In this document: one piece after another, positions 1-37,396 of the stretch
Layout of the letters: each line of letters starts with the position of its first letter
Position numbering within the stretch: the first letter of the stretch is position 1
Source: a virus
Lineage: Duplodnaviria; Heunggongvirae; Uroviricota; Caudoviricetes
Length of the DNA: 37,588 nucleotides
Virus record (IMG/VR): IMGVR_UViG_2563366827_000004
Coordinates: 1-37,588 of that record
Reading direction: 5' to 3' (one strand)
Position numbers and translations under genes: made by a program
Notes under the pieces: model-generated
The model's input: the letters and a program-made list of their open reading frames with translations, nothing else
Databases searched by the model: none
Told to the model about the DNA's origin: nothing

Positions 1-1167
1 TCAGGCCTTATGGTGGAAATAATCACTCAGGCGAGAAAACATGCTGCCTTCCCCAACAGATTCCAGGGTAACCAGCGGCCAGTGCGCCACCTGTTTATCA
101 CGGTCGTAAAGTTCAATTTCCCCTACCCGCTGATGGGCGCTAATTGGCGCGGTGAGTTCTTTACCATCAAGGGTATATTTGGCTTTGATATGTGGAATTT
201 CGGCTTTCGGTAGTACCATCCAGAACTCTTGTTCTGTTCCCAGGGCGATATTTTCTTTATCGCCATACCAGATGCGTTCCGTACCGACCTTTTTCCCACG
301 GTGCAAAATTTGCACCGTAGTAAAGTTTTGTTGCCCCCAACGCAGTAATTTTCTTGCCTCTTCCTCACGACCTTTTGCACTGTCAGCCCCCATTACCACT
401 GCAATGAGACGACGCTGCCCATCTACAGCCGAAGCAATGAGGTTAAAACCGGCACCAGAAGTATGACCCGTTTTCAGGCCGTCAACATTCATGGTTTTAT
501 CCCACAACAACCCGTTACGGTTTTGCTGGGTGATACCGTTCCAGGTGAGACTTTTCTCACTGTACATATGATAAAACTCGGGCTCGCCGTGGATGATAGC
601 ACGAGAAAGCACAGCTAAATCATAAGCCGAGCTATGCTGGCCAGGTGCATCCAGACCATGCACTGTTTCAAAATGCGTATCCTTGAGATGCAGCTTCTCG
701 GCATAGTTGTTCATCATTTCAACAAACTGCCGTTGCCCACCGGCAATATAGTCAGCCAGAGCAACACAAGCGTCATTTCCGGAATCCACAATTAAACCAC
801 GGCTTAAATCATGTACCGATACGCGATCGCCCTCTTTCAAAAACATCAGTGAAGAACCGACAAACACCGGATTATCTTTCGCCCACGCATCGCGCCCCAC
901 GGTGACAATATCGTCTGGCGTAATGCGATGACTATCGATAGCGCGATCCACGACATAACCCGTCATCAGCTTTGTCAGGCTGGCGGGATTGCGCTGTTGA
1001 TGCTCATTACCCGCGGTGAGGATCTGACCGGTGGTGTAATCCATCAGTACCCAGGACCCGGCATGAATCTGTGGAGGCTGAGGTGAAAAAGGAATGTTTT
1101 CCGCCGCAAAACCAGACGATAAGTTAAAAACGAACAAAGAAGCAGCAATAATAAGACGGCGTTTCAA
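1..1167 (-). CDS. dacD: D-alanyl-D-alanine carboxypeptidase DacD (PBP6b)
   Basis: ORF 1..1173 matches recalled E. coli DacD end to end (MLLKRRLIIAASLFVF...SRLSDYFHHKA). Probable TTG start at 1167, 7 nt after GAGGG, giving 388 aa. Confidence 0.9.
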   Translation of the reverse strand: MKRRLIIAASLFVFNLSSGFAAENIPFSPQPPQIHAGSWVLMDYTTGQILTAGNEHQQRNPASLTKLMTGYVVDRAIDSHRITPDDIVTVGRDAWAKDNPVFVGSSLMFLKEGDRVSVHDLSRGLIVDSGNDACVALADYIAGGQRQFVEMMNNYAEKLHLKDTHFETVHGLDAPGQHSSAYDLAVLSRAIIHGEPEFYHMYSEKSLTWNGITQQNRNGLLWDKTMNVDGLKTGHTSGAGFNLIASAVDGQRRLIAVVMGADSAKGREEEARKLLRWGQQNFTTVQILHRGKKVGTERIWYGDKENIALGTEQEFWMVLPKAEIPHIKAKYTLDGKELTAPISAHQRVGEIELYDRDKQVAHWPLVTLESVGEGSMFSRLSDYFHHKA

Positions 1168-1375
1168 CAGCAAACCCTCAGGAGTTTCAAATAGCTGTTC
1201 TTTTTACGGAAATACTTATGAACTGGCTGGAATAAAGTGCAAGAAAATGTGACTACTCTCTCATTTTTATCTGACATGATCTGTTGCCACTCGCTGTCAA
1301 ATTGTTGCGCTAAAGCTGATTAGCACGGTGATATTTGATACTCTGGCAGACAGCAGAAATAACGGATTTAACCTA

Positions 1376-1423
1376 ATGATGAATGACGGTAAGCAACAAT
1401 CTACCTTTTTGTTTCACGATTAC
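1376..1423 (+). pseudogene. sbcB: 5' fragment of exonuclease I gene sbcB, truncated by prophage insertion
   Basis: ATG ATG AAT GAC GGT AAG CAA CAA TCT ACC TTT TTG TTT CAC GAT TAC encodes MMNDGKQQSTFLFHDY, the recalled SbcB N-terminus. The frame then leaves SbcB and stops 4 codons later at 1436-1438. Confidence 0.6.
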
Positions 1424-1478
1424 GCGCAACACCCCTGAGAACCGCCATGAACAAGGGTTTCATGATTTGTGATTTTAG

Positions 1479-1502
1479 TTTGGTACGCAATTTGGTACAC
1501 AA
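1479..1502. repeat. Tandem 12-bp direct repeat TTTGGTAC(G/A)CAA x2, candidate integrase arm-type site
   Basis: tttggtacgcaa immediately followed by tttggtacacaa, about 55 bp inside the inferred prophage end. Confidence 0.35.
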
Positions 1503-1847
1503 CACAATTTTCACTTCAGCGGGTAGTCATCAAACTCACCATAACGAGCATCGTTAATGATGTATGTGATCACCACAAATATCACATCTGGACTAGTTCC
1601 GTCTTCATGCGCAGGTATCTGTTCACGCCTCCCTTTCTGCAAATCCTAAAGATGAGATTTTGGGGTTTTGGGATATCTTTTTATCCTCAGTTCTCTATCA
1701 ATTCTACAAAGCAGTAATGAACCATCACTATGTGATAGTGAGGCATCCGCTACATTAAGCGCAGAGAAATGATGCAGTGGTGGGCGGACTGGCTTGATGA
1801 AAAGGTGGAGTGATGGTTATTCTAAATAAAAATAATGCATTAATTTA

Positions 1848-1870
1848 GCCCTTACATTATCTGTAAGGGC
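1848..1870. terminator. Hairpin just downstream of the tailspike stop
   Basis: gcccttaca-ttatc-tgtaagggc, a 9-bp perfect stem. T-rich flanks are modest on both strands. Confidence 0.4.
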
Positions 1871-1883
1871 TTTGCCTTAAAAA

Positions 1884-3731
1884 TTAAAAAAACTCTTTTC
1901 CTGTTGTAAACATGCCTTCGGGAAGACGCGCACCGTTAACTGAAGAAAATATAGGACCATAATATTGCTTGTTATAGCTTTGTTGAAATGAAATATATCC
2001 ACCACCATATCCGTTATCTGACATATTTACTTGCGAAAAATAACAATTAATTGTTGACGCATCAATATCTCTAAACTGCTGCATGAATCCGCATTGGCCA
2101 ACAACAACATCACCATCATCTTCTTTTTTTGTTAAAATAGGAAGGTGAATCCAGTTAAAATTCCTTGCGCTCGTAGCCATATGTGTATACACGCGCTCGC
2201 AAATAATATCATCACCAGATGTTTTATTTATTGCATAATTTGTCACGTTTGCTCCATCGCCAAATATAGTTTCAGCAACATAGCTATATGTAGATGACGA
2301 AACTGTAAGCGTTGATGCTGTATGTAGTGTTACATGCCTTGATAAGAGCAATTTAGGAGCATAACCAGAATCAAGGTTAAAGGATGCATTTTCTGTCCTC
2401 AACCTTTGAAGAAAATCACTATGACCACCATGGTATGTACCGAAGAACTTTCCAGTTGATAATTCTTTTGCAGCAAACTCTGTTGCTCCATTCCCACCGA
2501 AGTAATATGAAGGCCCCCCATTCACAAAAGGAGTTATTGTTGCTATAAAATTGTCATAATCTAGTAATTCACAACATCCAAGGCTAAAAACGTTTAGCCC
2601 AACGAGATTTGCAGGTTGAAGCGTTGTCGTATCTGTATTTTCAACTTTAAGATACCAAGTTCCTCCAAGTCCATTTATTTCAATATCAATAGGAAGTGGT
2701 GGCTGACCACCTGGTAATATTTTTGTGTCAACGATCTTTTGCGTTGTCCAGTCAGTGTTGTTTCTGCTTATTGATATTGTTACTGACTTACTTGATGCAT
2801 TAGAGCATGCAAGTCTGACATGCGCTATGCTATTTGTTAACATATATGTTACATAAGCGTTTGTGGAAATTGAATAAACTTGAGGTGTGTTAAGGGTGAA
2901 ATCACCTTGTTCTGTTTCCGCGTGTATAGCGTCATCTGTTTTAGAAAAGCCATACAATGTACTTATTTGAGATTCAGTAAATGAAGATAGGGAGACGCCA
3001 GTGTCACTTTTTGTATGTGGTGATAATTTTGCGATAACTGCATCACTTACCATATATACACTTCCAGGCCTAAAAGGTGATGCCCCGCCATAGTTATTCG
3101 AGTCTGATGGTGAAACCTCATTTGTTACTCTATGAGAAATATATTTTCCTTTCCCATGACATCTTTTACTTATAATATAAAAGTCATTAGAATTTTCATC
3201 TTTGACTATTGCTTTTATGTGTGTTGTTATTGTAGGTGATGTTGGGGGGATGATTGATGTCACAAAGTTAACATCTATAGATTTTCGCACATTAATAAAT
3301 TCATCATCTATACTAGTAATTTTATCTTTTAACGTTCCATCTTCATATCCAATATTTTCAGTCCCATCAGGACCTGCGAGAGACTTTGATAGTTGATCCG
3401 GGTCATACTTCAGAACATTCGGAAAATAGAACTGCTGCGCACCATACGCATCATAAACAGCCATAGAGTGGCCTTGCACGGTTACAAACTTGGCAATCTG
3501 TCCGTTATATACCGGATATCCAGAAGCGTTAATGATGATTGGTTGCGAAACAGGAACGTGAGAACCGTCTTCATTTTCCACATAAACCTGAATCTGGTTT
3601 TCATGATTTACCGGGTCAGTGTCAATTTTACCGATATAAATTTTACCATTAGCTACGGCTTTAAAAGAACGAGCCATAGTGAAGAGTTGCGAAGGCATTC
3701 CTATAACCACATTTGGTGTTATATTAGTCAT
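1884..3731 (-). CDS. Tailspike protein with P22 gp9-like N-terminal head-binding domain and divergent receptor-binding body
   Basis: From the internal Met at 3731 the first ~110 aa (MTNITPNVV...RSFKAVANGKIYIGKIDTDPVN...VQGHSMAVYDA...VLKYDPDQ) closely match the recalled P22 tailspike N-terminus. GGA RBS upstream. The rest does not resemble P22. Confidence 0.85.
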   Translation of the reverse strand: MTNITPNVVIGMPSQLFTMARSFKAVANGKIYIGKIDTDPVNHENQIQVYVENEDGSHVPVSQPIIINASGYPVYNGQIAKFVTVQGHSMAVYDAYGAQQFYFPNVLKYDPDQLSKSLAGPDGTENIGYEDGTLKDKITSIDDEFINVRKSIDVNFVTSIIPPTSPTITTHIKAIVKDENSNDFYIISKRCHGKGKYISHRVTNEVSPSDSNNYGGASPFRPGSVYMVSDAVIAKLSPHTKSDTGVSLSSFTESQISTLYGFSKTDDAIHAETEQGDFTLNTPQVYSISTNAYVTYMLTNSIAHVRLACSNASSKSVTISISRNNTDWTTQKIVDTKILPGGQPPLPIDIEINGLGGTWYLKVENTDTTTLQPANLVGLNVFSLGCCELLDYDNFIATITPFVNGGPSYYFGGNGATEFAAKELSTGKFFGTYHGGHSDFLQRLRTENASFNLDSGYAPKLLLSRHVTLHTASTLTVSSSTYSYVAETIFGDGANVTNYAINKTSGDDIICERVYTHMATSARNFNWIHLPILTKKEDDGDVVVGQCGFMQQFRDIDASTINCYFSQVNMSDNGYGGGYISFQQSYNKQYYGPIFSSVNGARLPEGMFTTGKEFF

Positions 3732-3833
3732 GTGTGCAATCCTATTAGACTTGTTTGATAAAGAAGATAATGGAGTTAATGCTACAAATGACGCTATTGA
3801 TTTGAAAAATGATCTTCTATTCATATTAAACAC

Positions 3834-26054: not shown

Positions 26055-26998
26055 GCAATCCCCCTGTCTGCAAACTTCCCTTCCCGAACTCCCGTTAACG
26101 AGTCTTCTCTCAGCAGGTAATCAAAATCAGCCGTCCAGCCCGTGTCGTTGTCTCCGAAGTAAAACGGCTTGGCCTGATGCACAAACGCCCTGACATACGC
26201 TCTGAAACCGTCCACGTTTGGCGTTTTCAGTTGCGGGATGATTTTCTTCAGGCGGCGTTTTCGTTTCTCGTTGACCGCAACAGCGTGTGGCAGTCTGTCA
26301 CCGACTTCGGTGTTGTAGGCGTTCAGGAAGGATTCGTAGTCGATTCGTTCTGCCTTGCGACGTTCAGGTTTAACCTGCCCATCGCCTCCCCCATTGGGGG
26401 GTAGGGGGGTATTATTTATATTCTTGTTAATACCTTCTTGTTCATGATGTGCGGTTGTTTGTGCGGCTTCATGTGCGCTTTCATGTGCGGCATGTACGCT
26501 GAAAGCCGCGCTATTGCTGGCTTCATCATGTGCGGCATCATGTGCGGTTGTTTGTGCGGCTTCATGTGCGGGTAAATTGTCCATTTTTTGAGCATATTCA
26601 TGGTAATTTGTGATGGTTATCACACGGCCTTTTTGCTTCTCTCCATCAATGGAGATCATCCCCTCTTTCACAAAAACCTGAAGCATCCGCTCAACCTGAT
26701 CACGGCTTGCTGGCTTGCCATGTCTGTCGCATAACTGAAGACCTAAATCAGCTGCTGTCACAACCAGTTGACCGGGTTGCAGATGCCATTCATGACCTTT
26801 GAAATTCGCTTTGTATGGCTTTCTGGCGGCATTCAGGAGAAGGTTTTCCCACAGGGTGCGAAGATAAACATCTTTCGCCCATGACTGTTTCAGAATGCTC
26901 CGGTACAACGGAATGTAACCAGTTTTCTGGTTCTCCATCCTGTTGCTCCTGCGCTCGTGTGCGGCGCTGAAATCGTAGATTTTTGCTGTATTGCTCAT
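26051..26998 (-). CDS. O: Replication initiator O-like protein
   Basis: 315 aa; N-terminus [10 protein letters not shown] resembles lambda O (MTNTAKILNF); iteron array inside the gene; 4-bp overlap with the helicase gene. Confidence 0.75.
26441..26571. repeat. Origin-like iteron array (~9 tandem copies of a 12-bp unit nnTCATGTGCGG) with adjacent AT-rich block
   Basis: Tandem units seen directly; AT-rich stretch at about 26400-26440, downstream in the direction of O as in the lambda origin. Confidence 0.5.
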
Positions 26999-27000
26999 AA

Positions 27001-27273
27001 CTACCTGCCTTGACGAAAGACCTTAAGAACATCGTTAAACTGACTTACGGATATGTCTTCTTTGAGAAGCTTTTCCAGAAATGCGTTTGGAATGAACGTA
27101 TATCCCTCCTCTTTTGGTAGAGACGGGAGCAACGCCCTCGCCTCAGCCTTCAGAAGCTCAGTTCTGGCAACTTTCACAAAAGAGATTTGAGTTCTTTCAT
27201 CAATGGAACGAAGGAAGCGCAAACGCTTAGCTTCTTTGTGTGTATCAGGTGGATTAAAGCCTTTGTTTCGCAT
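27001..27273 (-). CDS. Hypothetical basic 90-aa protein between cII and O
   Basis: ATG at 27273 preceded by GAGGT; 22 bp after the cII stop and 2 bp before the O start. Taken from inside the longer track ORF 27001..27546. Confidence 0.55.
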   Translation of the reverse strand: MRNKGFNPPDTHKEAKRLRFLRSIDERTQISFVKVARTELLKAEARALLPSLPKEEGYTFIPNAFLEKLLKEDISVSQFNDVLKVFRQGR

Positions 27274-27295
27274 ATAATTACCTCGTTGGATGTTG

Positions 27296-27589
27296 TTAAA
27301 ATTCCATTTGTATTTGATCAGAACGCTCGGTTGCCGCCGGGCGTTTTTTATTGGTGAGAATCGAAGCAACTTGTCGTGCCAATCGAGCCATGTCGTCGTC
27401 GACAACACCCCATTCAAGAACAGCAAGCAGCATTGAGAACTTTGGAATCCAGTCCCTCTTCCACCTGCTGATCTGCGACTTATCAACGCCCACAGCTTCC
27501 GCTGTCTTCTCAGTTCCAAGCATTGCGATTTTGTTAAGCAACGCACTCTCGATTCTTAGAGCCTCGTTGCGTTTGTTTGCACGAACCAT
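27296..27589 (-). CDS. cII: Transcriptional activator CII
   Basis: 97 aa from MVRANKRNEALRIESALLNKIAMLGTEKTAEAVGVDKSQISRWKRDWIPKFSMLLAVLEWGV..., near-identical to recalled lambda CII. Confidence 0.95.
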   Translation of the reverse strand: MVRANKRNEALRIESALLNKIAMLGTEKTAEAVGVDKSQISRWKRDWIPKFSMLLAVLEWGVVDDDMARLARQVASILTNKKRPAATERSDQIQMEF

Positions 27590-27600
27590 ATGTAAGTATT

Positions 27601-27640
27601 TCCTTAACAAATAAGAAGTTATGCGCATCAACTTATGCGC
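27601..27640 (-). terminator. tR1-like hairpin between nutR and cII
   Basis: Minus-strand GCGCAU-N6-AUGCGC followed by a U-rich tract; weak. Confidence 0.3.
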
Positions 27641-27647
27641 GTTGTAT

Positions 27648-27691
27648 TCCCGCATTTCGGCGGGAATGAGGACCATGACTGTTAAAGAGCG
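27648..27691 (-). promoter_or_regulatory. nutR (boxA CGCTCTTTAACA and boxB hairpin)
   Basis: Minus-strand boxA is a perfect consensus, followed by a 6-bp stem hairpin UCCCGC-CGAAAU-GCGGGA, between cro and cII. Confidence 0.7.
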
Positions 27692-27697
27692 GTGTTA

Positions 27698-27892
27698 CTA
27701 TTTGTTTTTCTTGTTGCTTGGGAAAGGACGAACTTCCTCTCCAATCACACTGCCATCAGGCTTTACCGTAACCATAATGTTACGGCCTGCCAGAATGGCC
27801 TTGCTGATAGCGCACTGGATTACACCAAAGTCACTGGCTGCTTTAGCCTGTCCATGGATTTTGGCGTAATCGGCAAGTGTCATTCGAATCAT
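27698..27892 (-). CDS. cro: Cro repressor
   Basis: [62 protein letters not shown] aligns with recalled lambda Cro; ATG 27892 sits 6 nt after GGAGA. Confidence 0.9.
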
Positions 27893-27921
27893 ATGCACTC
27901 TCCGTTATTAACCATGAACAA

Positions 27922-27992
27922 AGAATACTACAGGTATTCAAAGCAATCAATACTTAGGGTATTTTTAGTTTAAGTACCTTAGCTATTAGAAT
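27922..27992. promoter_or_regulatory. OR operator region with divergent pR and pRM
   Basis: Palindromic sites AATACTACAGGTATT (27924-27938), AATACTTAGGGTATT (27949-27963) and a degenerate third (about 27972-27987). Minus-strand pR: -35 TTGATT, 17 bp, -10 TATTCT. cI ATG has no SD, so probably leaderless from pRM. Confidence 0.65.
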
Positions 27993-27998
27993 TAAGCT

Positions 27999-28715
27999 AT
28001 GGAAAATAAAAAATCACTGACGACAGAACAGCTGGAAGACGCTAAGCGGCTTAAGGCTTTGTATGAGTCAAAAAAGAAAGAATTGGGAATAACCCAATAC
28101 TCAATCGCTGATGAACTGGGTATCACCCAAGGAGCGGTAGGGCATTATCTTAATGGCAGAAATGCGCTAAACGTTGAGGTTGCATCTGGTTTTGCACGAT
28201 TGTTGCAAGTCTCAATTGCTGATTTTAGCCAGTCAATTGCTGCCAAGGTTGCAGAACAGGCAGAAAGCCTTAAGAGCGATGCCAACGTAAGGTATGCAGG
28301 GGAATACAGAGCAGGAAAGAGGTATCCGGTGTTAAGCAGTATCCAGGCTGGCTCGTGGTGTGAAGCATGCGAACCATACACCATTAAAGACATAGATGTT
28401 TGGCTTGAGTCTGACGCGCATATTCAAGGTAATGCGTTCTGGCTTAAAGTGGAAGGTGATTCAATGACGGCACCGGTTGGGTTAAGCATTCCAGAGGGAA
28501 CATTCGTTCTTTTCGATACCGGAAGGGAGGCGATCAACGGCAGCTTGGTCATAGCAAAACTTTCTGACTCTAACGAAGCAACATTCAAGAAGCTGATAAT
28601 CGACGGCGGAAATAAATACCTCAAGGGACTTAATCCTGCATGGCCTCTCGTGCCAATCAATGGAAACTGCAAGATTATAGGCGTTGCAATTGAGACAAAA
28701 CTCAGACTGGTTTGA
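27999..28715 (+). CDS. cI: CI repressor (lambda-CI-like, LexA-type autocleaving C-terminal domain)
   Basis: 238 aa; aligns with recalled lambda CI along its length (TQEQLEDA.RLKA.YE.KK.ELG...FWL.VEG.SMTAP...FTFKKLI.D) but the HTH recognition-helix region differs. Confidence 0.9.
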   Translation: MENKKSLTTEQLEDAKRLKALYESKKKELGITQYSIADELGITQGAVGHYLNGRNALNVEVASGFARLLQVSIADFSQSIAAKVAEQAESLKSDANVRYAGEYRAGKRYPVLSSIQAGSWCEACEPYTIKDIDVWLESDAHIQGNAFWLKVEGDSMTAPVGLSIPEGTFVLFDTGREAINGSLVIAKLSDSNEATFKKLIIDGGNKYLKGLNPAWPLVPINGNCKIIGVAIETKLRLV

Positions 28716-28733
28716 TCACGCAAGGGGGCGCTT

Positions 28734-29102
28734 ATGGTTGGAACCGCTATAGCAAGCTTTTTTGGGATGTTGGCAATCTCGACAATTTACGGCTTAGCGC
28801 ATGCTTTTATTGCGAAATCTCTATCAGAAAAAATAAGCCAGGCTTGGGCGCATAGATCAGCTCGTTTCATGATTCTGGTGATCATAGCAATACAAGGGAT
28901 ATCTGCATTTATCCTCTATGGATCAAGCTTATACCTATTGTATCAAGGCGCGACATTTACGCCTTACACCAGTGATTACGGAACTCTATACGATGGTAGT
29001 GAAGACATCACTGTGGCTTGGATCGTCTTTGGTTTATCTATGGCCGTGTCTGTTGTAGCAGACATCATTAAGGTAATTCTCGTCTTAACCTTCGCTGACT
29101 AA
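28734..29102 (+). CDS. Hypothetical 3-TM membrane protein, rexAB-position gene
   Basis: 122 aa; AGGGGG RBS 5 nt upstream; starts 18 bp after the cI stop; three hydrophobic segments (about aa 2-27, 45-70, 92-120). Confidence 0.7.
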   Translation: MVGTAIASFFGMLAISTIYGLAHAFIAKSLSEKISQAWAHRSARFMILVIIAIQGISAFILYGSSLYLLYQGATFTPYTSDYGTLYDGSEDITVAWIVFGLSMAVSVVADIIKVILVLTFAD

Positions 29103-29233
29103 CCTATAATCCCGGCAGCAATAGCTATCGGGATCCACTTCACATATCCCGCATAAAAAGCACTGAACAAGCAGACACCGAAAAAATAAATATCCTTTGT
29201 ATTCATTTGCTTATCATTATTTCATCAAAAATA

Positions 29234-29275
29234 AATACCTTGGGTATTTACACAATAAAATACCTACAGTATTCT
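29234..29275 (+). promoter_or_regulatory. OL operators and pL promoter
   Basis: AATACCTTGGGTATT (29234-29248) and AATACCTACAGTATT (29259-29273), same palindrome family as OR; -35 TTTACA (29247-29252), 17 bp, -10 TATTCT (29270-29275). Confidence 0.6.
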
Positions 29276-29321
29276 TTAGCCATCAGCAGGAAGCTGGAAG
29301 CCAAACGGAAAAGATTGGCAG

Positions 29322-29362
29322 GCTCTTTAACATTGATGGGATTGTCCCGCCGAAATGCGGGA
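29322..29362 (+). promoter_or_regulatory. nutL (boxA GCTCTTTAACA and boxB hairpin)
   Basis: boxB TCCCGC-CGAAAT-GCGGGA is identical to the nutR boxB. Confidence 0.7.
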
Positions 29363-29469
29363 ACCAAAGAGTAATTGGCTTTGGGGTGACGTGAAGTGCA
29401 GCTGCACGACGGCAACCGGAAGATAAGCACCCGGCGCGTCACCGCCAAAGTCAATCATCGGAGGTCAAC

Positions 29470-29769
29470 ATGACAGTAGTCATTACATATCTGGCTGACG
29501 ATAACGCCAGAAATCGCCGCAGAGCACGCAGACAGGCTCAACGTGAACAGGCGATGCAAGAACAGCGACTGGCGCGAAAAATTGCGCTAAAGCTCTCTGG
29601 TTGCGTCAGAGCGGATAAAGCAGCATCACTCGGAATCCTTCGCTGCAAGAAGGCAGATGAAGTCGAGAGTAAACAGAATCGTATTTACTACCGCAAGCCA
29701 CGCAGTGAAATGGGTGTGACTTGTGTTGGTCGCCAGAAAATGAAATTAGGCAGCAAACCACTTATTTGA
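29470..29769 (+). CDS. N: N-like antitermination protein
   Basis: 99 aa, first gene after pL/nutL, GGAGG RBS, N-terminal arginine-rich motif DNARNRRRARRQAQREQ. Confidence 0.7.
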   Translation: MTVVITYLADDNARNRRRARRQAQREQAMQEQRLARKIALKLSGCVRADKAASLGILRCKKADEVESKQNRIYYRKPRSEMGVTCVGRQKMKLGSKPLI

Positions 29770-29780
29770 GAGGAATTAAT

Positions 29781-30404
29781 ATGTCATCAATCCGCTTAAC
29801 TACGAGAATGAAAGAGGAAATCGCTCGTAACGCTTTAATTAAGTCTGGGGTTTTCACTGAACTTGAAGAAGTAACAAAGTTAAAGAACCAGCTTGCACTT
29901 GACGCCAGAGTTATTGCGTTTGGCGGTAAAAAGAAAACTGAGGAAGTGGATCGGTTATCATCCAAGTTAGCAGCTATAAGTGAAGAACTTGAGAAGATGG
30001 GATGTTCATTTTACTCATGCGATGTTCGTTCTGCTTCGATTTATCTGACTGTATCTGGAAGAAGGGTTGGCTGGCATTCATACGGAAAAGACGGCAACGG
30101 TGAAGATATATTGCTCCCCACCCCAGAAAAAGATAAATGCATGTTTGACGCAGAACACGAAATAACAAAAAGGTTTGATGAAATCTGCGCATTGCAACAA
30201 AAACTTGAAGCCAAGAAAAAGGATATCGAATCAAATGTATGGGCTGCTTTGAACTCAGTCACAACAGTTAAGCGACTTATTGAAGTTTGGCCTGAAAGCA
30301 AAGAATTGCTACCAAAAGAAGCAGATAAAGCAAGTACAGCACTTCCTGCTTTACGGGTAGAAGATTTGAATAAGATGATTGGACTTCCTTCCGAGGCCGC
30401 ATAG
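29781..30404 (+). CDS. Hypothetical 207-aa protein co-transcribed with N
   Basis: ATG at 29781 with GAGAGGAA RBS, 12 bp after the N stop; soluble, no recognised motif. Confidence 0.7.
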   Translation: MSSIRLTTRMKEEIARNALIKSGVFTELEEVTKLKNQLALDARVIAFGGKKKTEEVDRLSSKLAAISEELEKMGCSFYSCDVRSASIYLTVSGRRVGWHSYGKDGNGEDILLPTPEKDKCMFDAEHEITKRFDEICALQQKLEAKKKDIESNVWAALNSVTTVKRLIEVWPESKELLPKEADKASTALPALRVEDLNKMIGLPSEAA

Positions 30405-30419
30405 TCGGCCTTTATTTTT
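30394..30419 (+). terminator. Intrinsic terminator overlapping the stop of the 207-aa gene
   Basis: AGGCCG-CATAGT-CGGCCT followed by TTATTTTT. Confidence 0.6.
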
Positions 30420-30448
30420 GGCATAAACAACAGAATAAACACTGCACT

Positions 30449-30476
30449 GTGTATTCATTCCAACGAGTGAATACAC
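30449..30476. promoter_or_regulatory. 12-bp inverted repeat (gtgtattcattc-caac-gagtgaatacac, 11/12 match)
   Basis: Seen directly between two terminators; no T-run follows. Confidence 0.3.
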
Positions 30477-30538
30477 GGAGCAATGTCGCTCGTAACTAAA
30501 CAGGAGCCGACTTGTTCTGATTATTGGAAATCTTCTTT

Positions 30539-30564
30539 GCCCTCCTATGTGAGGGCAATTTTTT
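30539..30564 (+). terminator. Second intrinsic terminator, immediately before the coiled-coil gene
   Basis: GCCCTC-CTATGT-GAGGGC followed by AATTTTTT, 12 bp before the GGAGG RBS. Confidence 0.55.
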
Positions 30565-30576
30565 GACGGAGGATAT

Positions 30577-31545
30577 ATGAGTGAAGTAACAGATTTAGTT
30601 GTTATTGAAAAAGCAAATGCAATGACTGTATTTCAGTCTGCCGACCAGATTGAAGAAATCCTTCAAAAGGTTGAACGTGAAGTTATGTCCTTTGTGCCTG
30701 ATATCACAACGGCAAAGGGCAGAAAGGAGATCGCTTCTCTGGCGTATAAAGTTGCGCAAACGAAAACATATCTCGATGGTCTTGGAAAAGACCTTGTTGC
30801 TGAACTGAAGGAAATTCCAAAGCTAATTGATGCCAACCGCAAGACAGTGCGTGATCGCCTTGATGAGCTGAAAGCCAAGGCACGCCAGCCTCTTACTGAT
30901 TATGAGGAGGAGCAGGCGCGGATTAAAGCCGAAGAAGAGGCTAAGGCAGCAGCTGAAGCTCTCGCAAAGCAAATTGAGTCTGACCATGAAATAGCGATTT
31001 TGATGGATCGCGAATTTGACCGCCAAAGAGAAGAGGCAAGACTCAAAGCGGAGCAGGAAAAGCGAGAGCATGAAGAACGCTTAAAAAGAGAAGCTGAAGA
31101 GAAAGCCAGAGCAGAAGCCGAAGCAAAGGCAAAAGCCGAAATTGAAGCAGCAGCAAGGCGAGAAGCAGAGGCTAAGGCCGCAGCGGAACGTGCAGAGCGT
31201 GAACGCATTGAAGCCGAGCAACGAGCACAGCGCGAAGCAAAAGAGGCAGCAGAACGGGCTGAAAGAGAAAAGCAGGCGGCAATTGAAGCAGAACGCCGAA
31301 AAGCACAGGAGGAGGCAGAACGAATCCGGCGCGAGGCTGAAGCAAAAGAGCAAGCCAGAATAGCAGAAGAAAAAAGAATCAAGGACGAAGAAGAGCGTAG
31401 AGCAAAGGATAAAGCTCACCGGAAAGAAGTAAATAACAAAATACTTGCTGACCTTATCAAGGTTGGCGCATCAGAAGATGTTGCTAAAAATATCATAACA
31501 GCCATCGTAAAAGGCGAAGTATTCGCAACAAAAATAACCTACTAA
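30577..31545 (+). CDS. Hypothetical protein with a long E/R/K/A-rich helical repeat region
   Basis: 322 aa; about 150 central residues are almost only E, A, R, K, Q; globular-looking N- and C-termini; GGAGG RBS. Confidence 0.7.
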   Translation: MSEVTDLVVIEKANAMTVFQSADQIEEILQKVEREVMSFVPDITTAKGRKEIASLAYKVAQTKTYLDGLGKDLVAELKEIPKLIDANRKTVRDRLDELKAKARQPLTDYEEEQARIKAEEEAKAAAEALAKQIESDHEIAILMDREFDRQREEARLKAEQEKREHEERLKREAEEKARAEAEAKAKAEIEAAARREAEAKAAAERAERERIEAEQRAQREAKEAAERAEREKQAAIEAERRKAQEEAERIRREAEAKEQARIAEEKRIKDEEERRAKDKAHRKEVNNKILADLIKVGASEDVAKNIITAIVKGEVFATKITY

Positions 31546-31569
31546 TAAAACCAACATAAGGAACCACCC

Positions 31570-31701
31570 ATGATTTACGCAATCGCGGGAGGCGCTCGCA
31601 TGGGTGCCTTCCAACTAAATGAATCTTTACTTGAACGAATCACCCGTAAATTACGTGACGGATGGAAAAGAGTTGAGATCTTATTATGCGCAATGAAATA
31701 G
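31570..31701 (+). CDS. Possible small protein (43 aa)
   Basis: ATG 31570 after AAGGAA; below the track cutoff. Confidence 0.3.
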   Translation: MIYAIAGGARMGAFQLNESLLERITRKLRDGWKRVEILLCAMK

Positions 31702-31838
31702 CCATCAATCACCAGATGCTTCGTGCTGCACAGAACAAAGCAGTAATAGCCAGATTTATTGGTGATTCAAAAATGTGGCTTGAAGCAAATAAAGCGATGA
31801 AATCAGCTATCAACCTTCCGTGGTATCGCAGGAAATGA
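31686..31838 (+). CDS. Possible small protein (50 aa)
   Basis: Overlaps the previous ORF; stop overlaps the next start (ATGA). Confidence 0.3.
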   Translation: MRNEIAINHQMLRAAQNKAVIARFIGDSKMWLEANKAMKSAINLPWYRRK

Positions 31839-31993
31839 GTTTTACAGATAACTGGTCAGACGAAGAATTCATTCGTCAGATGAAAGATTTAATCGGTAAC
31901 GAAGGAGATATTCATGTCACTTGCAACCACAGTGAAGGAGAGCAAGTTACAGAGACGCATGTACACGCAGAAAGCTCTCTGGTATCGCCATAA
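31835..31993 (+). CDS. Possible small protein (52 aa)
   Basis: ATGA-coupled to the previous ORF; below the track cutoff. Confidence 0.3.
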   Translation: MSFTDNWSDEEFIRQMKDLIGNEGDIHVTCNHSEGEQVTETHVHAESSLVSP

Positions 31994-32092
31994 TGGTGAC
32001 CGCGAAGGAATGCGGGTATGCCTTAATTTGTCCCGAGTCGAAGTATTAAATCAGCGTTATTTCCTTGGGCCTTGTCCATTCTGAGGTGAATT

Positions 32093-32800
32093 ATGGATTT
32101 GAACAAATTCGATGAGCCATTCAGCCCTGAAGATATCGAATGGCGAATACAGCAAAGCGGTAAAACACGCGATGGCAAGGTGTGGGCTATGGTGCTGGCT
32201 TATATCACGAACCGGGCAATCATGAAACGCCTGGACGATGTTTGCGGCAAAGCAGGATGGCGCAATGAATACCGCGATATTCCCAACAACGGCGGCGTTG
32301 AATGCGGCATATCAATAAAGATTGATTCCGAATGGGTAACCAAATGGGATGCTGCTGAAAACACGCAGGTAGAAGCCGTCAAAGGTGGTCGTTCAGGTGC
32401 AATGAAGCGTGCTGCCGTTCAGTGGGGAATCGGTCGGTATCTGTATAACCTTGAGGAAGGTTTCGCACAAACATCTCTCGATAAAAAGCAGGGGTGGCAC
32501 AGGGCAAAACTGAAGGATGGAACAGGATTTTACTGGCTCCCTCCATCGCTGCCGGGATGGGCAATCCCAGCATCAGATAACAAACCATCACCAGAAAATA
32601 CCAACCAGAAATCTCCATCGGTTGACTGCGAACAAATCCTGAAAGACTTCAGCGATTATGCGTCAACAGAAACTGACAAGAAAAAACTCATCGAGCGTTA
32701 TCAGCGTGACTGGCAATTAATGGCTGGCAACGAGGAGGCGCAGGCTAAATGCGTTCAGGTAATGAACATCAGAGTTAACGAACTAAAACAGGCGGCATAA
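32093..32800 (+). CDS. Single-strand annealing recombinase (Rad52/Erf-type SSAP)
   Basis: 235 aa; motif AMKRAAVQWGIGRYLYNLE is typical of Rad52-like phage annealases; the C-terminal ~50 aa resemble what I recall of the P22 Erf C-terminus (unverified). Confidence 0.7.
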   Translation: MDLNKFDEPFSPEDIEWRIQQSGKTRDGKVWAMVLAYITNRAIMKRLDDVCGKAGWRNEYRDIPNNGGVECGISIKIDSEWVTKWDAAENTQVEAVKGGRSGAMKRAAVQWGIGRYLYNLEEGFAQTSLDKKQGWHRAKLKDGTGFYWLPPSLPGWAIPASDNKPSPENTNQKSPSVDCEQILKDFSDYASTETDKKKLIERYQRDWQLMAGNEEAQAKCVQVMNIRVNELKQAA

Positions 32801-33274
32801 ATGGCAAGCAGAGGCGTAAATAAGGTGATCATTATTGGTCGCCTTGGGCATGATCCAGAAATCAGATATTCACCATCAGGAACGGCATTTGCAAACCTTA
32901 CAGTTGCTACGTCAGAACAATGGCGTGATAAGCAAACTGGAGAGCAAAAGGAGCAGACGGAGTGGCACCGTGTGGTAATGAGCGGGAAACTAGCAGAAAT
33001 TGCCAGCGAGTATCTGCGAAAAGGCTCTGAGGTTTATCTTGAAGGCAAATTGCGGACAAGAAAATGGCAGGATCAAAGCGGACAGGATCGGTTCACTACC
33101 GAAGTTATCGTAGGCGTTGGTGGAACCATGCAAATGCTTGGTGGCAAGCAAGGAGGCAATGAACAGTCTTCACCTCAGCGAAATAACGGTCAGCAACAAA
33201 GACAGCAACCTCTGCAGCAGGGAAATCACAGCGAACCACCTATGAACTTCGACGATTCGGATATTCCGTTCTAG
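32801..33274 (+). CDS. ssb: Single-stranded DNA-binding protein
   Basis: 157 aa; OB-fold-like N-terminus, Gln/Gly-rich linker and acidic tail ending DDSDIPF. Confidence 0.9.
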
Positions 33275-33283
33275 GAGCTGAAT

Positions 33284-33763
33284 ATGAAAATCTGCTCAAG
33301 ATGCCATCAACAGAAGGAAGAAAAGGACTTTCAAATCAGAAGAGCATCCAGAGATGGATTAACTGCCGCTTGCCGGGCTTGCCTGGCTGAATACGACAAA
33401 GAGCGCGCGGGATTGCCACATCGAGTATCAGCAAGGAGAGAATATCAATCATCGGAACGCGGCAGAGAACGGTGTAACGCAGCCAAAAAGCGGTTCATTC
33501 AGAGCAACCCATGGAAAAGAAAAGCCCACATCATCGTGGGTAATTTTTTGCGCGACGGTAAGCTAATCCGACCACCACAATGTGAGTGCTGCGGATCAGA
33601 ATGTAAACCACAGGCGCACCACTGCGACTACAGCAAACCAACCGATGTGATGTGGCTCTGCAAGTCATGTCATGTCGAGTGGCACAAACATAACAAACCT
33701 ATCTACCCAGACGAGGAACCAGTAACTCTCCCCTTCCCTCGTCACGCTATTCACGCAATTTAA
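33284..33763 (+). CDS. HNH endonuclease-like zinc-binding protein
   Basis: 159 aa; N-terminal Cys pairs and C-terminal CECCGSE...AHHCDY...LCKSCHVEWH, an HNH-type motif. Confidence 0.6.
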   Translation: MKICSRCHQQKEEKDFQIRRASRDGLTAACRACLAEYDKERAGLPHRVSARREYQSSERGRERCNAAKKRFIQSNPWKRKAHIIVGNFLRDGKLIRPPQCECCGSECKPQAHHCDYSKPTDVMWLCKSCHVEWHKHNKPIYPDEEPVTLPFPRHAIHAI

Positions 33764-33776
33764 TCAGGAGAAAATC

Positions 33777-34070
33777 ATGCCAGCGCCTCTGTATGGTGCG
33801 GATGACGCGCGCCGCTGTTCCGGCAATTCCGTATCGGAGGTGCTGGATAAATTCAGAAAAAACTACGATCGAATAATGTCGCTACCGCAGGAAACGAAAG
33901 AGGAAAAGGAATTTCGCCATTGTATATGGCTTGCAGAGAAAGAAGAACGCGAGCGAATTTACCAGACATCAATCCGACCATTCCGCAAAGCCACATATAC
34001 CCACTTCCCTGAAATTGACCCGCGCCTGCGTAATTACCGCTCACGCTATGGCGCTATCAGTAATGACTGA
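33777..34070 (+). CDS. Hypothetical protein
   Basis: 97 aa; AGGAG RBS 6 nt upstream. Confidence 0.5.
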
Positions 34071-34080
34071 GGAATTTACC

Positions 34081-34245
34081 ATGAGAGGACTTGCATACAA
34101 TCCCGGCATTCTTCCGGCAGAAATGATTATTCGCCAACGCGTAAAGCCAATGCCATCGAGAGAGGAATTGCTCAAGAGAAATTCTTTTCCATCAGTAAAT
34201 CAAAACAAATATCTGAATGCGATGTGGCGGAGTGGGAAGAAATGA
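34081..34245 (+). CDS. Hypothetical small protein (54 aa)
   Basis: ATG 34081 after GAGGAA; start choice uncertain (alternative ATG 34060). Confidence 0.35.
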
Positions 34246-34778
34246 AACAAATGTCACTAATTGAGATGGATGGATTTCTGAAAGGTAAATGCATCCCACG
34301 AGATTTAAAGGTTAACGAAACAAACGCTGAATATCTGGTGCGTAAATTTGCTGAAGCGGAGGCCAAGATTTCGGCTCTGTCCGAAGACCACCAGAAAGCG
34401 ATTGAGTCAATTAAGCAGGCTGATGCGGCTGTTAAGTTGGCACACGAGAAGTTTTCGGCGCTGGCGGCGGAGAATGCGGGGCTGAAGTCTGGCGCTATGG
34501 ACGAAATCAAGGTTATCAACCGTGGAGGGCAGGCATATTGCGTAAAAGATGGAGTGCAAGTTAATCCCATGTATGCAAGAGGGTGGAATGACTATCGCGC
34601 AAAGTCTATGCAATCAGACACCCCAGCCACCGATGCTTTCCTGACTGAAATTGAACGCAAAGCAATCCGAAAGTTCATTAACAGCATTGAACACATCCTG
34701 CGTGACAAGTTGTCACCGTATGACACCGAAGAGATGCTTGAGACTATGCGTATTTTTCTGGAAGAACAGGGAGGCTAG
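34242..34778 (+). CDS. Hypothetical protein (178 aa)
   Basis: ATGA overlap with the upstream stop; GGAG RBS. Confidence 0.55.
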
Positions 34779-34783
34779 CAAAA

Positions 34784-35098
34784 ATGACAATCACAAAACA
34801 ACGAGTAGAAAAAATCATATATCGCCATGAAATGGGACTGAACAGCGATGTCACTGCCGAAGAGGTTTATGACCTGGCTGTACTGGCGCTGAATTTATCA
34901 AATATCGCAAACCTGAAGCGATACGAGCTTGATATGGGAGGTTGCGACTCGTGCGGTCAGGATTGTGGCGCTGACATGACTGAAGATTCTGATGGCGATT
35001 ATGTCCTGTTTGATGACGTGGTTAAGTTGTTTGAGTTTGATACAACCACTCAGAAGTTAGAAGGCCCAGCAAAGGAGACAACCAGTGAGCGAAATTGA
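34784..35098 (+). CDS. Hypothetical acidic protein (104 aa)
   Basis: ORF with RBS; cysteine cluster CDSCGQDCG. Confidence 0.5.
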   Translation: MTITKQRVEKIIYRHEMGLNSDVTAEEVYDLAVLALNLSNIANLKRYELDMGGCDSCGQDCGADMTEDSDGDYVLFDDVVKLFEFDTTTQKLEGPAKETTSERN

Positions 35099-35981
35099 CT
35101 ATCAGGCACTGCGTGAAAAGGCAGAGAAAGCAACGTGTGGGGTGTGGTCGCTCGAATATGGAGAGAGCCGATTTGATTGTGATGATGCGCTAATTCATCG
35201 TGACGTTGTTGGATATATTCCCATTTGCAGAATTGAAGGAGCGCATCCTGAAAGCGGTTTCGATGAAGATTTCCAAATGGAACAGCAGGCCAATGCTGAA
35301 TTCATCGCCGCAGCCAATCCGGCTACTGTGCTGGCACTACTGGATGAACGGGAAAGAAACCAGCAATACATAAAACGCCGCGACCAGGAGAACGAGGAGA
35401 TTGCGCTAACGGTAGGGAAGCTGCGCGTTGAGCTGGAAGGCAAAGACAAGCTGATTGCAGAGCTTAGAAAACAATGCGCTGAATGGGAGCGAAAAGCATT
35501 AAGCAACTTTGAAGAGTGTGCTGCGATGGCTGAACGTATCGAAGAGTTGCAGACAAAATCTGCACCAGATTCGTTTGGCATCATCGGTGAAAATATTCGA
35601 ACACAGGATAATCGAATAACGTCAGACCCTATGTTTTGTGTGTATCAAAAGCGCGAAATCGTTGTTGATGCTGATTATGACTATGACCGGATTGTCTGGG
35701 TTGATGAAGATGGCAATGAAGCCAATAAACGCCAAAGTCGTCGTCTCGAACTACTTCACGAAAACTTTCGAGAGCCACCAGAAAAGTGGCGGCGCGTTGC
35801 TGTGAAAGATATTGATGAATTCGTTACCTGCTGTTTCACCGAACAGGGTTGTAAAGATTACCTGGCAGTCAATGGTCACAATCTTCGCTTGCCATTTATA
35901 TATGTAAAAAGTGGTTTCAGGAACGCTGAATATATCGGCATAAGAAACTGGCTTGCTGGCATTCGCATCAAAGGAGAGTGA
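35085..35981 (+). CDS. Ead/Ea22-like protein
   Basis: 298 aa; GTG start after AAAGGAGA; block ANAEFIAAANPATVLALLDERE is characteristic of Ead/Ea22-like prophage proteins. Confidence 0.65.
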   Translation: MSEIDYQALREKAEKATCGVWSLEYGESRFDCDDALIHRDVVGYIPICRIEGAHPESGFDEDFQMEQQANAEFIAAANPATVLALLDERERNQQYIKRRDQENEEIALTVGKLRVELEGKDKLIAELRKQCAEWERKALSNFEECAAMAERIEELQTKSAPDSFGIIGENIRTQDNRITSDPMFCVYQKREIVVDADYDYDRIVWVDEDGNEANKRQSRRLELLHENFREPPEKWRRVAVKDIDEFVTCCFTEQGCKDYLAVNGHNLRLPFIYVKSGFRNAEYIGIRNWLAGIRIKGE

Positions 35982-35982
35982 G

Positions 35983-36174
35983 ATGAACGGACAAATATCA
36001 ATTGTTCGACCGGGAGCATGTGACGATTGCGAGATACGAATGATTATTCGTCTGGCGATGGGGAAAACAATAACTGCTCTCATTACTCCTGAAAATCTCG
36101 CATTAGCATTAACAGGAAAGTCAGACCTGCCAGTAGAGCTAAAGCTGCGAAACGTTGAGATTAAAGTGAAATAG
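35983..36174 (+). CDS. Hypothetical small protein (63 aa)
   Basis: ATG 35983 after AAGGAGAG, 1 bp after the upstream stop. Confidence 0.45.
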   Translation: MNGQISIVRPGACDDCEIRMIIRLAMGKTITALITPENLALALTGKSDLPVELKLRNVEIKVK

Positions 36175-36176
36175 TT

Positions 36177-36701
36177 ATGAATACTCTTACCAAAGAATGG
36201 TTACAGAACACGATTACCAGCATTGAGTCAGCACGGGATGAAATACCGTTCGGACTCAATGAAGATCAAAACAACATGCTTACCGCATTAAAAATTGCAC
36301 TGACATCGCTGGAAGCAGAGCCGGTGGCATGGAAGGCAACCTTCACGCAAATTGACAATGAATATAATACATTCACCACTATGTATTCTGACAAAGCAGA
36401 AGTCGAACGCTGGGTGCGACTGCATGAAATAGGTGACTTTCGGGCAGAAATAACACCGCTTTACGCAGCGCCGTCAGCGCCGGTAATTCCGGATGGTTGG
36501 ATAAGCTGTAGTGAGCGGATGCCAGATGATGGTCAGCACGTAATTATTTTATGTGATGGCGCATTCGTTCTTTATGCGCAATATCGAGACGGAGAGTTTT
36601 TCGATATTGTCCGCAATGGTGATGAATTTTTCGAAACACAGAGTCGCAATGTAACCGACTGGATGCCGCTGCCAGAACCGCCGGAGCAGGATGGTGAATG
36701 A
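36177..36701 (+). CDS. DUF551-like phage protein
   Basis: 174 aa; C-terminal part (DGWISCSERMPDDGQHVIILCDG...DWMPLPEPP) resembles the DUF551 family seen in lambdoid early-left regions. Confidence 0.55.
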   Translation: MNTLTKEWLQNTITSIESARDEIPFGLNEDQNNMLTALKIALTSLEAEPVAWKATFTQIDNEYNTFTTMYSDKAEVERWVRLHEIGDFRAEITPLYAAPSAPVIPDGWISCSERMPDDGQHVIILCDGAFVLYAQYRDGEFFDIVRNGDEFFETQSRNVTDWMPLPEPPEQDGE

Positions 36702-36787
36702 TGCCGCCAGTTAAAGTTGTGATTATCACTTTGGTGATGATAGTGATTGCGAGAATCATGTCTGGTGAAATTGGGTGGATATGGTAA
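36698..36787 (+). CDS. Possible 29-aa hydrophobic peptide
   Basis: MMPPVKVVIITLVMIVIARIMSGEIGWIW; ATG overlaps the upstream stop; single predicted TM helix. Confidence 0.3.
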   Translation: MMPPVKVVIITLVMIVIARIMSGEIGWIW

Positions 36788-36888
36788 TGACCATGGCAGC
36801 AGCAGATCGCAACTAACAATCCTCGCACTCGCGGGGATTTCTTTTATCTGAACTCGCTACGGCGGGTTTTGTTTTATGGAGATGATAA

Positions 36889-37056
36889 ATGCACTTTCGA
36901 GTCACAGGTGAATGGAATGGAGAGCCATTCAACAGGGTTATCGAAGCAGAGGACATCAACGACTGCTATAACCACTGGATGATATGGGCGCAGATAGCGC
37001 ATGCAGACGTAACCAATATTCGAATTGAAGAACTGAAAGAACACCAAGACGCCTGA
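36889..37056 (+). CDS. Hypothetical small protein (55 aa)
   Basis: ATG 36889, 7 nt after GGAG; followed by a hairpin and T-run. Confidence 0.4.
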   Translation: MHFRVTGEWNGEPFNRVIEAEDINDCYNHWMIWAQIAHADVTNIRIEELKEHQDA

Positions 37057-37069
37057 TGGCGGTTTTTTT
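37050..37069 (+). terminator. Weak hairpin plus T7 run (CGCC-TGAT-GGCG then TTTTTTT)
   Basis: Seen directly; stop codon of the 55-aa ORF lies in the loop. Confidence 0.35.
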
Positions 37070-37080
37070 GGGGGTAGTAG

Positions 37081-37296
37081 ATGGCTGCAATTCACATTGT
37101 CTCAATAATATGCAATGCAATTCAGATAGTTGCTTGCATTATCTTTGTTTTCTCAATCCTTCGCTCCCGACGATATTCTCCAGCAATTAACCGACATCCT
37201 GCACAGGTTGAAGCCGTCAGGATGGCTATAGAGTTACGAAATGAGATGAATAAGGCATTAATGGAGATGGAGAAACCATTCACTGACAAACATTAA
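37081..37296 (+). CDS. Small membrane protein (71 aa)
   Basis: MAAIHIVSIICNAIQIVACIIFVFSIL: N-terminal TM helix followed by a charged helical tail. Confidence 0.5.
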   Translation: MAAIHIVSIICNAIQIVACIIFVFSILRSRRYSPAINRHPAQVEAVRMAIELRNEMNKALMEMEKPFTDKH

Positions 37297-37358
37297 GAGT
37301 GTAAATAAAGAAATCACACCGCCTCACACTCGATGAGGCATGTACATATCTGATAGAT

Positions 37359-37381
37359 CCGCTATATGGCGGTTTCTTTTT
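37359..37381 (+). terminator. Weak hairpin plus T-run (CCGC-TATATG-GCGG then TTTCTTTTT) upstream of xis
   Basis: Seen directly; same GGCGGTTT motif as the element at 37050. Confidence 0.3.
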
Positions 37382-37396
37382 GCCTGGAGAATTAAG

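Follow-up and report, generated by a model that had tools for sequence, protein, structure and literature searches.

The end of a P22-like prophage in the phage 2851-type site of sbcB, and the hybrid sbcB at its other end

Introduction

The viral DNA considered here, a stretch of 37,588 nucleotides that will be called the window throughout, starts with a bacterial gene, dacD, and then, at positions 1376-1502, passes from the first codons of sbcB, the gene of exonuclease I (ExoI), into phage DNA that soon carries a 12-bp tandem repeat. Such a locus raises the question of how this junction was made, what role the repeat has, and whether the bacterium loses its exonuclease I.

The comparisons described below leave little doubt that this segment forms the dacD-side end of a P22-like prophage, 37.55 kb long, that occupies the phage 2851-type site in sbcB, with sbcB rebuilt as a hybrid gene at the other end; the binding of the integrase (Int) to its sites, and the expression and activity of the hybrid, are predictions from sequence. 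The gene is a familiar target, as Stx prophages have four standard sites in E. coli O157:H7 and sbcB is among them (PMC8309913). In naming the two junctions we follow the Sf101 paper, i.e., the int/sbcB side is attL and the dacD-side junction is attR. The features of the window are collected in Table 1.

Table 1. Features of the window discussed in the text, with the evidence for each
Feature	Position	Strand	Evidence and remarks
dacD (D-alanyl-D-alanine carboxypeptidase), complete host gene	1..1167	-	Collinear with MG1655 dacD (L004:5382-6548), 99.1%
Native dacD-sbcB intergenic region, host promoter side of sbcB, intact	1168..1375		Within the gap-free 99.09% MG1655 alignment
Orphaned sbcB stub: 16 native codons (MMNDGKQQSTFLFHDY), 4 phage-derived (AQHP) and stop	1376..1438	+	Identity to MG1655 sbcB up to 1424
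13-bp recombination core TTTCACGATTACG	1412..1424		sbcB nt 37-49 (codons F13 H14 D15 Y16 and first base of E17)
int-distal arm of attP proper	1425..1510		Matches mEp234 97.6%, EC.P3 and E212 96.9%, Sf101 93.1%
Probable integrase arm-type site 1, TTTGGTACGCAA	1479..1490	+	One of five same-orientation TGGTACRC in attP; position kept in L055
Probable integrase arm-type site 2, TTTGGTACACAA	1491..1502	+	Same basis; 12-bp start-to-start spacing kept in L055
umuD/humD-like S24 peptidase pseudogene, N-terminus missing, internal stop	1511..1765	-	tblastn with HK140_028 residues 45-130: 56%, E = 3.5e-26
HK620/IntS-type integrase relic, last 18 codons and stop, KRREMMQWWADWLDEKVE*	1756..1813	+	100% protein identity to HK620 Int C-terminus
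Perfect 10-bp-stem hairpin, 5-nt loop, AGCCCTTACA / TGTAAGGGCT	1847..1871		Between int relic and tailspike 3' end
P22-type tailspike, 615 aa, last late gene of the prophage	1884..3731	-	Pfam Head_binding, residues 1-113, E = 8e-65
Small excisionase-like HTH gene, 63 aa	37397..37588	+	Runs up to the window edge; mEp234_026 and Sf101_0019 agree with it in position and length

The dacD-side junction

An earlier reading of this DNA, made from its letters alone (hereafter the sequence-only reading), had placed a prophage junction within the 5' end of sbcB, with dacD and the shared intergenic region intact on the bacterial side. Alignment to the dacD-sbcB locus of E. coli K-12 strain MG1655 bears this out, since positions 1-1424 match it at 99.09% over 1,424 bp, without gaps, and the alignment ends at 1424; the gene at the start of the window is annotated as dacD in every E. 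coli hit. Base by base, 49 identical bases run from the sbcB ATG, the last of them being window position 1424, and phage DNA follows. Positions 1376-1423 read ATGATGAATGACGGTAAGCAACAATCTACCTTTTTGTTTCACGATTAC, whose translation corresponds to residues 1-16 of MG1655 SbcB, so the 16-codon match given in the sequence-only reading is present on exact alignment; the plus strand from 1376 reads ATGATGAATGACGGTAAGCAACAATCTACCTTTTTGTTTCACGATTACG, and the MG1655 protein begins MMNDGKQQSTFLFHDYETFG. The sbcB N-terminus at the junction is thus an exact match, far beyond chance.

Past the native codons, the frame adds AQHP and stops at 1436-1438. Within the window SbcB is represented by codons 1-16 only, with no complete RNase_T or ExoI C-terminal domains, i.e., by a stub and not a gene. 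The phage tailspike expected from 1884 was found there as a minus-strand ORF, and the dacD-side junction with this same arm occurs in 420 of 5,426 complete E. coli genomes.

The far end of the prophage and excision in silico

The opposite junction lies about 1.4 kb past the end of the window and was read on contig KB733087.1 (GCA_000352585.1, locus L021), which is 100% identical to window positions 26177-37588 (11,412 bp); with this overlap of 11.4 kb, a window coordinate equals the L021 coordinate plus 26,176. The int gene lies on the minus strand just outside the window, after the excisionase-like gene, and the order on L021 beyond the window is xis, int (on the opposite strand), a 181-bp spacer, and sbcB. 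The integrase has 392 aa and two Pfam domains, Arm-DNA-bind_3 (E = 8e-18; 64.8 bits, cut-off 27) and Phage_integrase (E = 7e-16; 58.9 bits, cut-off 27.1), and is 98-99% identical to the integrases of Sf101, HK544, and HK140 (L033, L035, and L042). A second copy of the core is found at L021:12786-12798, the equivalent of window positions 38962-38974, which makes the prophage 37,550 bp long from core to core. Hence both items that the sequence-only reading had proposed to look for past int, namely the rest of sbcB and a duplicated core, are in place.

When the prophage is excised in silico, the joined phage arms match the attP of mEp234 at 98.9% over 616 bp and the joined bacterial flanks match MG1655 at 99.1% over 551 bp, both gap-free, so that the empty site, the comparison proposed earlier for defining the crossover, is restored. 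In an assembly from an independent read set, the left end likewise runs from ejection protein through tailspike and dacD to sbmC, with the tailspike called as a 615-aa gene beside dacD. The int-side junction, i.e., the joint between the int arm and sbcB, is present in 582 of 5426 complete E. coli genomes (~11%).

The 13-bp core and the type of attachment site

When the window and the empty site are aligned with two free attPs and two further junctions, the only block identical in all six sequences is TTTCACGATTACG, at 1412-1424, and it occurs once within the window. The earlier estimate of a core at about 1415-1430 was therefore right in location to within 3 bases, while the exact shared core is the block given here. 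It is identical in the MG1655 attB, in the attP of the free phages mEp234 and Sf101, in Stx2c phage 1717, and in strain EC50. The mEp234 record labels it "prophage attachment site (type 2851)" and already remarks on the similarity of attP to sbcB, and that of Stx2c phage 1717 labels it "duplication due to insertion". PMC4159516 gives the 13-bp attP of phage 2851 and Sf101 as CGTAATCGTGAAA and reports integration of Sf101 at sbcB with this 13-bp core, in agreement with the mention of Sf101 in the sequence-only reading.

The phage 2851-type attP is used by Stx2c phages, mEp234, HK544, HK140, and Sf101, and the features of this module found here are the shared core, the insertion in the 5' end of sbcB by dacD, the presence of the core at both ends, and a matching Int. 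The similarity extends beyond the core, because the attPs of free phages, HK544 and HK140 among them, match the window from 1425 (imperfectly already from 1395) to 1813; the same arm also matches the ends of Stx1a, Stx2a, and Stx2c prophage records. Scanned in full against Rfam and for tRNA genes, the window gave no hits, so the att site is not associated with an RNA gene. Codons D15 and E17 encode what we take to be catalytic DEDDh residues of ExoI, and if so, the core lies on the most conserved codons of sbcB, making it a good target across hosts.

A core-like sequence, GTTTCATGATT, is also present at 1457-1467, 46 bp downstream of GTTTCACGATT (1411-1421) at the core. The E. coli-type attPs conserve this sequence and the divergent attP of L055 does not, and it could be either a secondary core-type site or a product of chance.

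Candidate arm-type sites

The two copies of the tandem repeat begin 54 bp and 66 bp beyond the core, and the sequence-only reading had regarded them as a plausible arm-type site of the integrase. Their shared motif, TGGTACRC, is not enriched within the window itself, where 2 matches are found versus 1.2 expected, and the case for arm-type sites is drawn entirely from the complete attP of relatives. In the attPs of mEp234 and Sf101, TGGTACRC occurs five times within 295 bp, always in one orientation, and 0 times elsewhere in 5.4 kb; 0.2 copies are expected, and five were reached in 0 of 200 shuffles. The copies are split 3 + 2, as three of them adjoin the start codon of int and two are the tandem pair, and the three int-proximal copies are also present on L021.

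The positions of all five sites are conserved in integrase relatives down to 59-72% identity. When the int-proximal arms of relatives with 59-99% Int identity are aligned, mean column identity is 73% and the three GTAC centres are invariant in position. The flanks of the int-proximal copies vary in concert in each phage, with TTTGGTAC becoming TTCTGTAC or TTTTGTAC, i.e., TGGTAC changing to CTGTAC or TTGTAC. Moreover, the divergent free attP L055 (Int 72% identical) has TTATGTACACAC and TTTTGTACATAG 12 bp apart in an int-distal arm that is otherwise unrelated, and the distances of the pair to the int start are 284/296 there versus 285/297 in the E. coli type.

The repeat could instead be incidental, arising by chance, as a remnant of the 3' end of the umuD-like pseudogene, or as a site for Xis or IHF. 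We regard this as unlikely. The absence of enrichment within the window agrees with such a reading, as does the short distance of 9 bp between the repeat and the stop codon of the S24 pseudogene; however, chance accounts poorly for five copies that share one orientation and are found in the two arms of attP only, a pseudogene remnant does not explain why the pair recurs with the same spacing and distance in an unrelated arm that has no aligned remnant, and the integrase has an Arm-DNA-binding domain, while the copies change in concert with the divergence of Int. The 12-bp tandem repeat is thus very probably a pair of integrase arm-type sites, and the original suggestion gains support from the five-copy architecture of attP and from its conservation in relatives.

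The rebuilt sbcB

On L021, the int-proximal arm ends with ATG ACA GAC ACA GAT AAA CAA CCT ACC TTC CTC, in frame with the core. The phage thus brings its own gene start, and an intact sbcB frame is rebuilt at this end: the hybrid gene, L021:12753-14177, has 474 codons, no internal stops, and both the RNase_T and the ExoI C-terminal domains, and it lies 181 bp from int in divergent orientation. The protein begins MTDTDKQPTFLFHDY|ETFGTHP..., with the first 11 codons (MTDTDKQPTFL...) supplied by the phage. Read from its second Met, the host SbcB starts with MNDGKQQSTFLFHDY, which equals the hybrid start in length and shares 10 of 15 residues with it, and the remainder of the hybrid protein has three differences only from K-12 SbcB. 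The Pfam RNase_T match begins at hybrid residue 12, so the exchange is limited to a short N-terminal tail before the exonuclease domain. The same hybrid start is present in EC50, where PGAP calls sbcB an intact exodeoxyribonuclease I of 1,425 bp.

The prophage at the sbcB site of EC50 (L007:20340-22725) is a remnant of about 9 kb riddled with IS elements, which keeps int, a truncated xis-like gene, fragments of IS30 and IS3, a tailspike-like ORF, and gtrABC. At 40 kb from its junction, EC50 has the colanic acid/rfb region and not a far prophage junction.

The insertion therefore leaves the reading frame of ExoI intact, and the hybrid would presumably be expressed and active. The sequence-only reading had raised the loss of exonuclease I as a possible consequence, which the 474-aa frame on L021 contradicts. 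That the insertion nonetheless inactivates sbcB, leaving a lysogen without exonuclease I and with altered recombination and repair, appears quite unlikely to us. In its favor, the native promoter and start codon no longer adjoin the main part of the gene, and a stop ends the stub after 20 codons; in addition, papers use the word "disruption" for the sbcB site, and promoter prediction in the phage arm is empty, as a simple sigma-70 scan of the 181-bp int-sbcB spacer found no promoter. However, the same kind of scan finds no consensus promoter in the native upstream region of sbcB either, so that promoter scanning is uninformative about expression of the hybrid; terminator scans of the spacer and of the native region are empty as well. 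Against inactivation stand the intact 474-aa gene on L021, with its in-frame phage start and all ExoI domains, and the annotation of the EC50 hybrid as functional by PGAP. Moreover, the surrogate start stays in frame in relatives down to 59% Int identity and in free phages, which would be unexpected if it were useless, and in Pantoea anthophila a hybrid-type start persists, with about 0.5 kb of visible gene open, next to an integrase that has decayed.

Since the whole region upstream of sbcB is replaced and the spacer holds three candidate arm-type sites, the prophage may rewire ExoI expression, e.g., by making it depend on Int occupancy or on the state of the prophage; we offer this as a speculative reading with rather low odds. 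If true, it could benefit the phage's own Rad52-type and Abc2 recombination functions.

The integrase lineage across Enterobacterales

Searching viral contigs with the integrase as query returned 79 loci (L027-L105), and the comparison covers those relatives, with 59-99% Int identity, that have upstream DNA with a match to the FHDY codons. In all of them the int start lies 212-214 bp from the FLFHDY codons, and an in-frame surrogate start, either ATG or TTG, precedes these codons. Except in the attPs of free phages, the sequence downstream of the FLFHDY codons belongs to the sbcB of another host (ETFGKSPSLDRPAQFAGIRT and ETFGTSPSRDRPAQFAGLRT among them), several Enterobacterales being targeted in this way. 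By this conservation, the surrogate-start arrangement is evidently selected and not accidental. A bolder extension, which shares the low odds of the rewiring proposal, is that this entire integrase lineage has one conserved strategy in the Enterobacterales, namely to target the FLFHDYE codons and bring along a surrogate 5' end.

A group of integrases at ~56% identity was also considered as sbcB-targeting and rejected, as no FHDY core is found within 600 bp; evidently, this group has another target. Furthermore, when the surrogate and core sequence together were used to scan species-representative genomes, no genus with a native sbcB start equal to the surrogate came out; the hits were occupied sites only, including one in Pantoea anthophila. 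In strain LMG 2558 of that species (L015:7250-7520), there is an integrase relic that is interrupted by a stop within its conserved LYGKP region, whereas the GTAC repeats and a surrogate-style sbcB start (TTG-KNDPGQPTFLFHDYE) remain, with sbcB open over the ~0.5 kb visible; it looks like an old integration that left the phage-derived gene start in place.

The rest of the arm, the mosaic boundary, and the prophage backbone

Beyond the tandem repeat, the arm holds a pseudogene whose intact counterpart, HK140_028, matches Pfam Peptidase_S24; in some relatives, such as HK140, the umuD-like gene is intact beside a dinI-like gene. The arm then overlaps a short relic of an HK620-type integrase. The entire int-distal arm was also considered as a decayed integrase gene and this was rejected, as tblastn matches only the last ~18-19 codons.

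This relic is found in every 2851-type attP module and also at the HK620-type joint of int and tailspike: the similarity of all 2851-type modules to the window ends at 1813-1814, and that of the HK620-type joint starts at 1756. In HK620, attP lies upstream of int, which reads towards the tailspike, and in seven E. coli genomes the tailspike module adjoins a complete intS gene. Given this gene order and the shared sequence, the 59-bp relic looks like the joint of a cassette replacement, in which a P22-like backbone appears to have exchanged its HK620-type attP-int cassette for a 2851-type xis-int-attP cassette. For the hairpin that follows the relic at 1847-1871, a simple terminator scan makes no call of an intrinsic terminator.

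The combination of this att arm with this tailspike is absent from complete RefSeq E. coli genomes, the one point found in favor of the junction being an assembly chimera or a rearrangement scar instead of a prophage end made by an integrase, yet such an origin is extremely improbable, considering that the same dacD-side junction recurs in 420 complete genomes, the independent assembly has dacD next to the tailspike, both prophage ends have a copy of the core and int is adjacent, and in-silico excision restores attP and attB without gaps.

The backbone is that of a P22-like podovirus, with a virion module of the Lederbergvirus type: the called genes match the P22-type families P22_gp7, Inj_translocase, Phage_P22_gp16, P22_Tail-4, Phage_stabilise, P22_CoatProtein, and Head_binding, and 42-64% of the sequence is covered at 94-96% identity by E212, CUS-3, IME10, and others. 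For the tailspike, the ORF list offers an upstream GTG at 3833, which is not the called start. Its receptor-binding part of ~500 aa has no Pfam match, and among 5,426 complete E. coli genomes only 7 have the tailspike, with 99.4-99.9% identity; in each of them the prophage that carries it has an intS-type integrase.

At the other edge of the window, the excisionase-like ORF occupies the position of the putative xis of mEp234 and has Pfam matches below the cut-offs (Phage_AlpA, 17.8 bits, cut-off 21; HTH_17, 16.8 bits, cut-off 27). Elsewhere in the window, an ORF of 207 aa at 29781-30404 on the plus strand, in the early-left region between the repressor and cIII/kil, matches Pfam Nmad5 (nucleotide-modification-associated) and may be a moron or a defence-related gene.

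Relation to known systems

The attachment module agrees closely with that of phage 2851 and Stx2c phage 1717, as the 13-bp core is identical, its position in sbcB is the same, and the int-distal arm is 93-95% identical over window positions 1300/1425-1813. In contrast, these are long-tailed lambdoid Stx phages of 55-62 kb, whereas the prophage described here is a 37.55-kb P22-like podovirus, and no stx gene is visible within the window.

Closer in its virion is Sf101 (Lederbergvirus), another P22-like podovirus with the same core, an integrase 99% identical (L033), the same order xis > < int - attP, and the same five TGGTACRC sites. It differs in having oacB between attP and the tailspike, in the tailspike itself, and in an arm that is 93% identical; the available portion of the Sf101 paper (PMC4159516) does not comment on the rebuilding of sbcB or on arm-type sites. 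The phages mEp234, HK544, and HK140 are siphoviruses with an "attP type 2851" and with virion modules unrelated to those of this prophage, even though the attP rebuilt here is 98.9% identical to that of mEp234 over 616 bp. In HK140 the umuD-like gene is kept intact, whereas the window has a pseudogene in its place.

At a more general level, the system resembles the Int/attP system of lambda, whose heterobivalent tyrosine integrase uses arm-type and core-type sites, and with which it shares an integrase made of arm-binding N-terminal and catalytic domains, a short core identity, and an adjacent small excisionase-like gene. The candidate arm-type sites are repeated on both arms of attP, as in lambda, split 3 + 2 here, where lambda attP has 2 + 3. 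Unlike in lambda, int is transcribed away from attP and convergently with xis, and the target lies within a coding sequence. Phage 21 and e14, which integrate in icd, and the phages that integrate in tRNA genes carry in their arm a diverged copy of the displaced gene end, and thereby keep the target gene whole with its 3' end replaced. At sbcB it is the 5' end that is replaced instead, so that the phage must provide the start codon together with the translation-initiation region and any promoter.

Conclusions

Taken as a whole, the locus is very probably the product of site-specific recombination by a tyrosine integrase at the phage 2851-type site in sbcB, with strand exchange taking place within the 13-bp identity TTTCACGATTACG (1412-1424, sbcB codons 13-17). 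On the dacD side, the native promoter of sbcB and 16 codons remain as a dead 20-codon stub running into the int-distal arm of attP; on the other side, the int-proximal arm supplies a diverged sbcB start in frame with the core, to give the hybrid sbcB. The repeats at 1479-1502 would then be the int-distal pair of five GTAC-centred sites, and the Arm-DNA-binding N-terminal domain of Int would bind TTTGGTACRCAA, as in lambda attP.

Publications and the annotation of public records already cover the junction, its core, and the gene that is targeted. In the literature searched, whose coverage stops short of the original description of phage 2851, no statement was found on restoration of the sbcB frame by the phage arm or on the five-site arm architecture. 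Both are expected when a coding sequence is the target of a lambda-type integrase and are, for this reason, refinements and not discoveries, and the current understanding of how such systems work is unchanged.

Nevertheless, five candidate arm-type sites are now mapped for an integrase by which Stx2c prophages, serotype-converting prophages, and others are moved, and this map could help in the design of a PCR assay for the att site or of an integration vector. Occupancy of the sbcB site is often called "disruption", yet the frame is kept here and in the other lysogens directly examined; accordingly, lysogens with an occupied sbcB site should not be assumed to be sbcB mutants.
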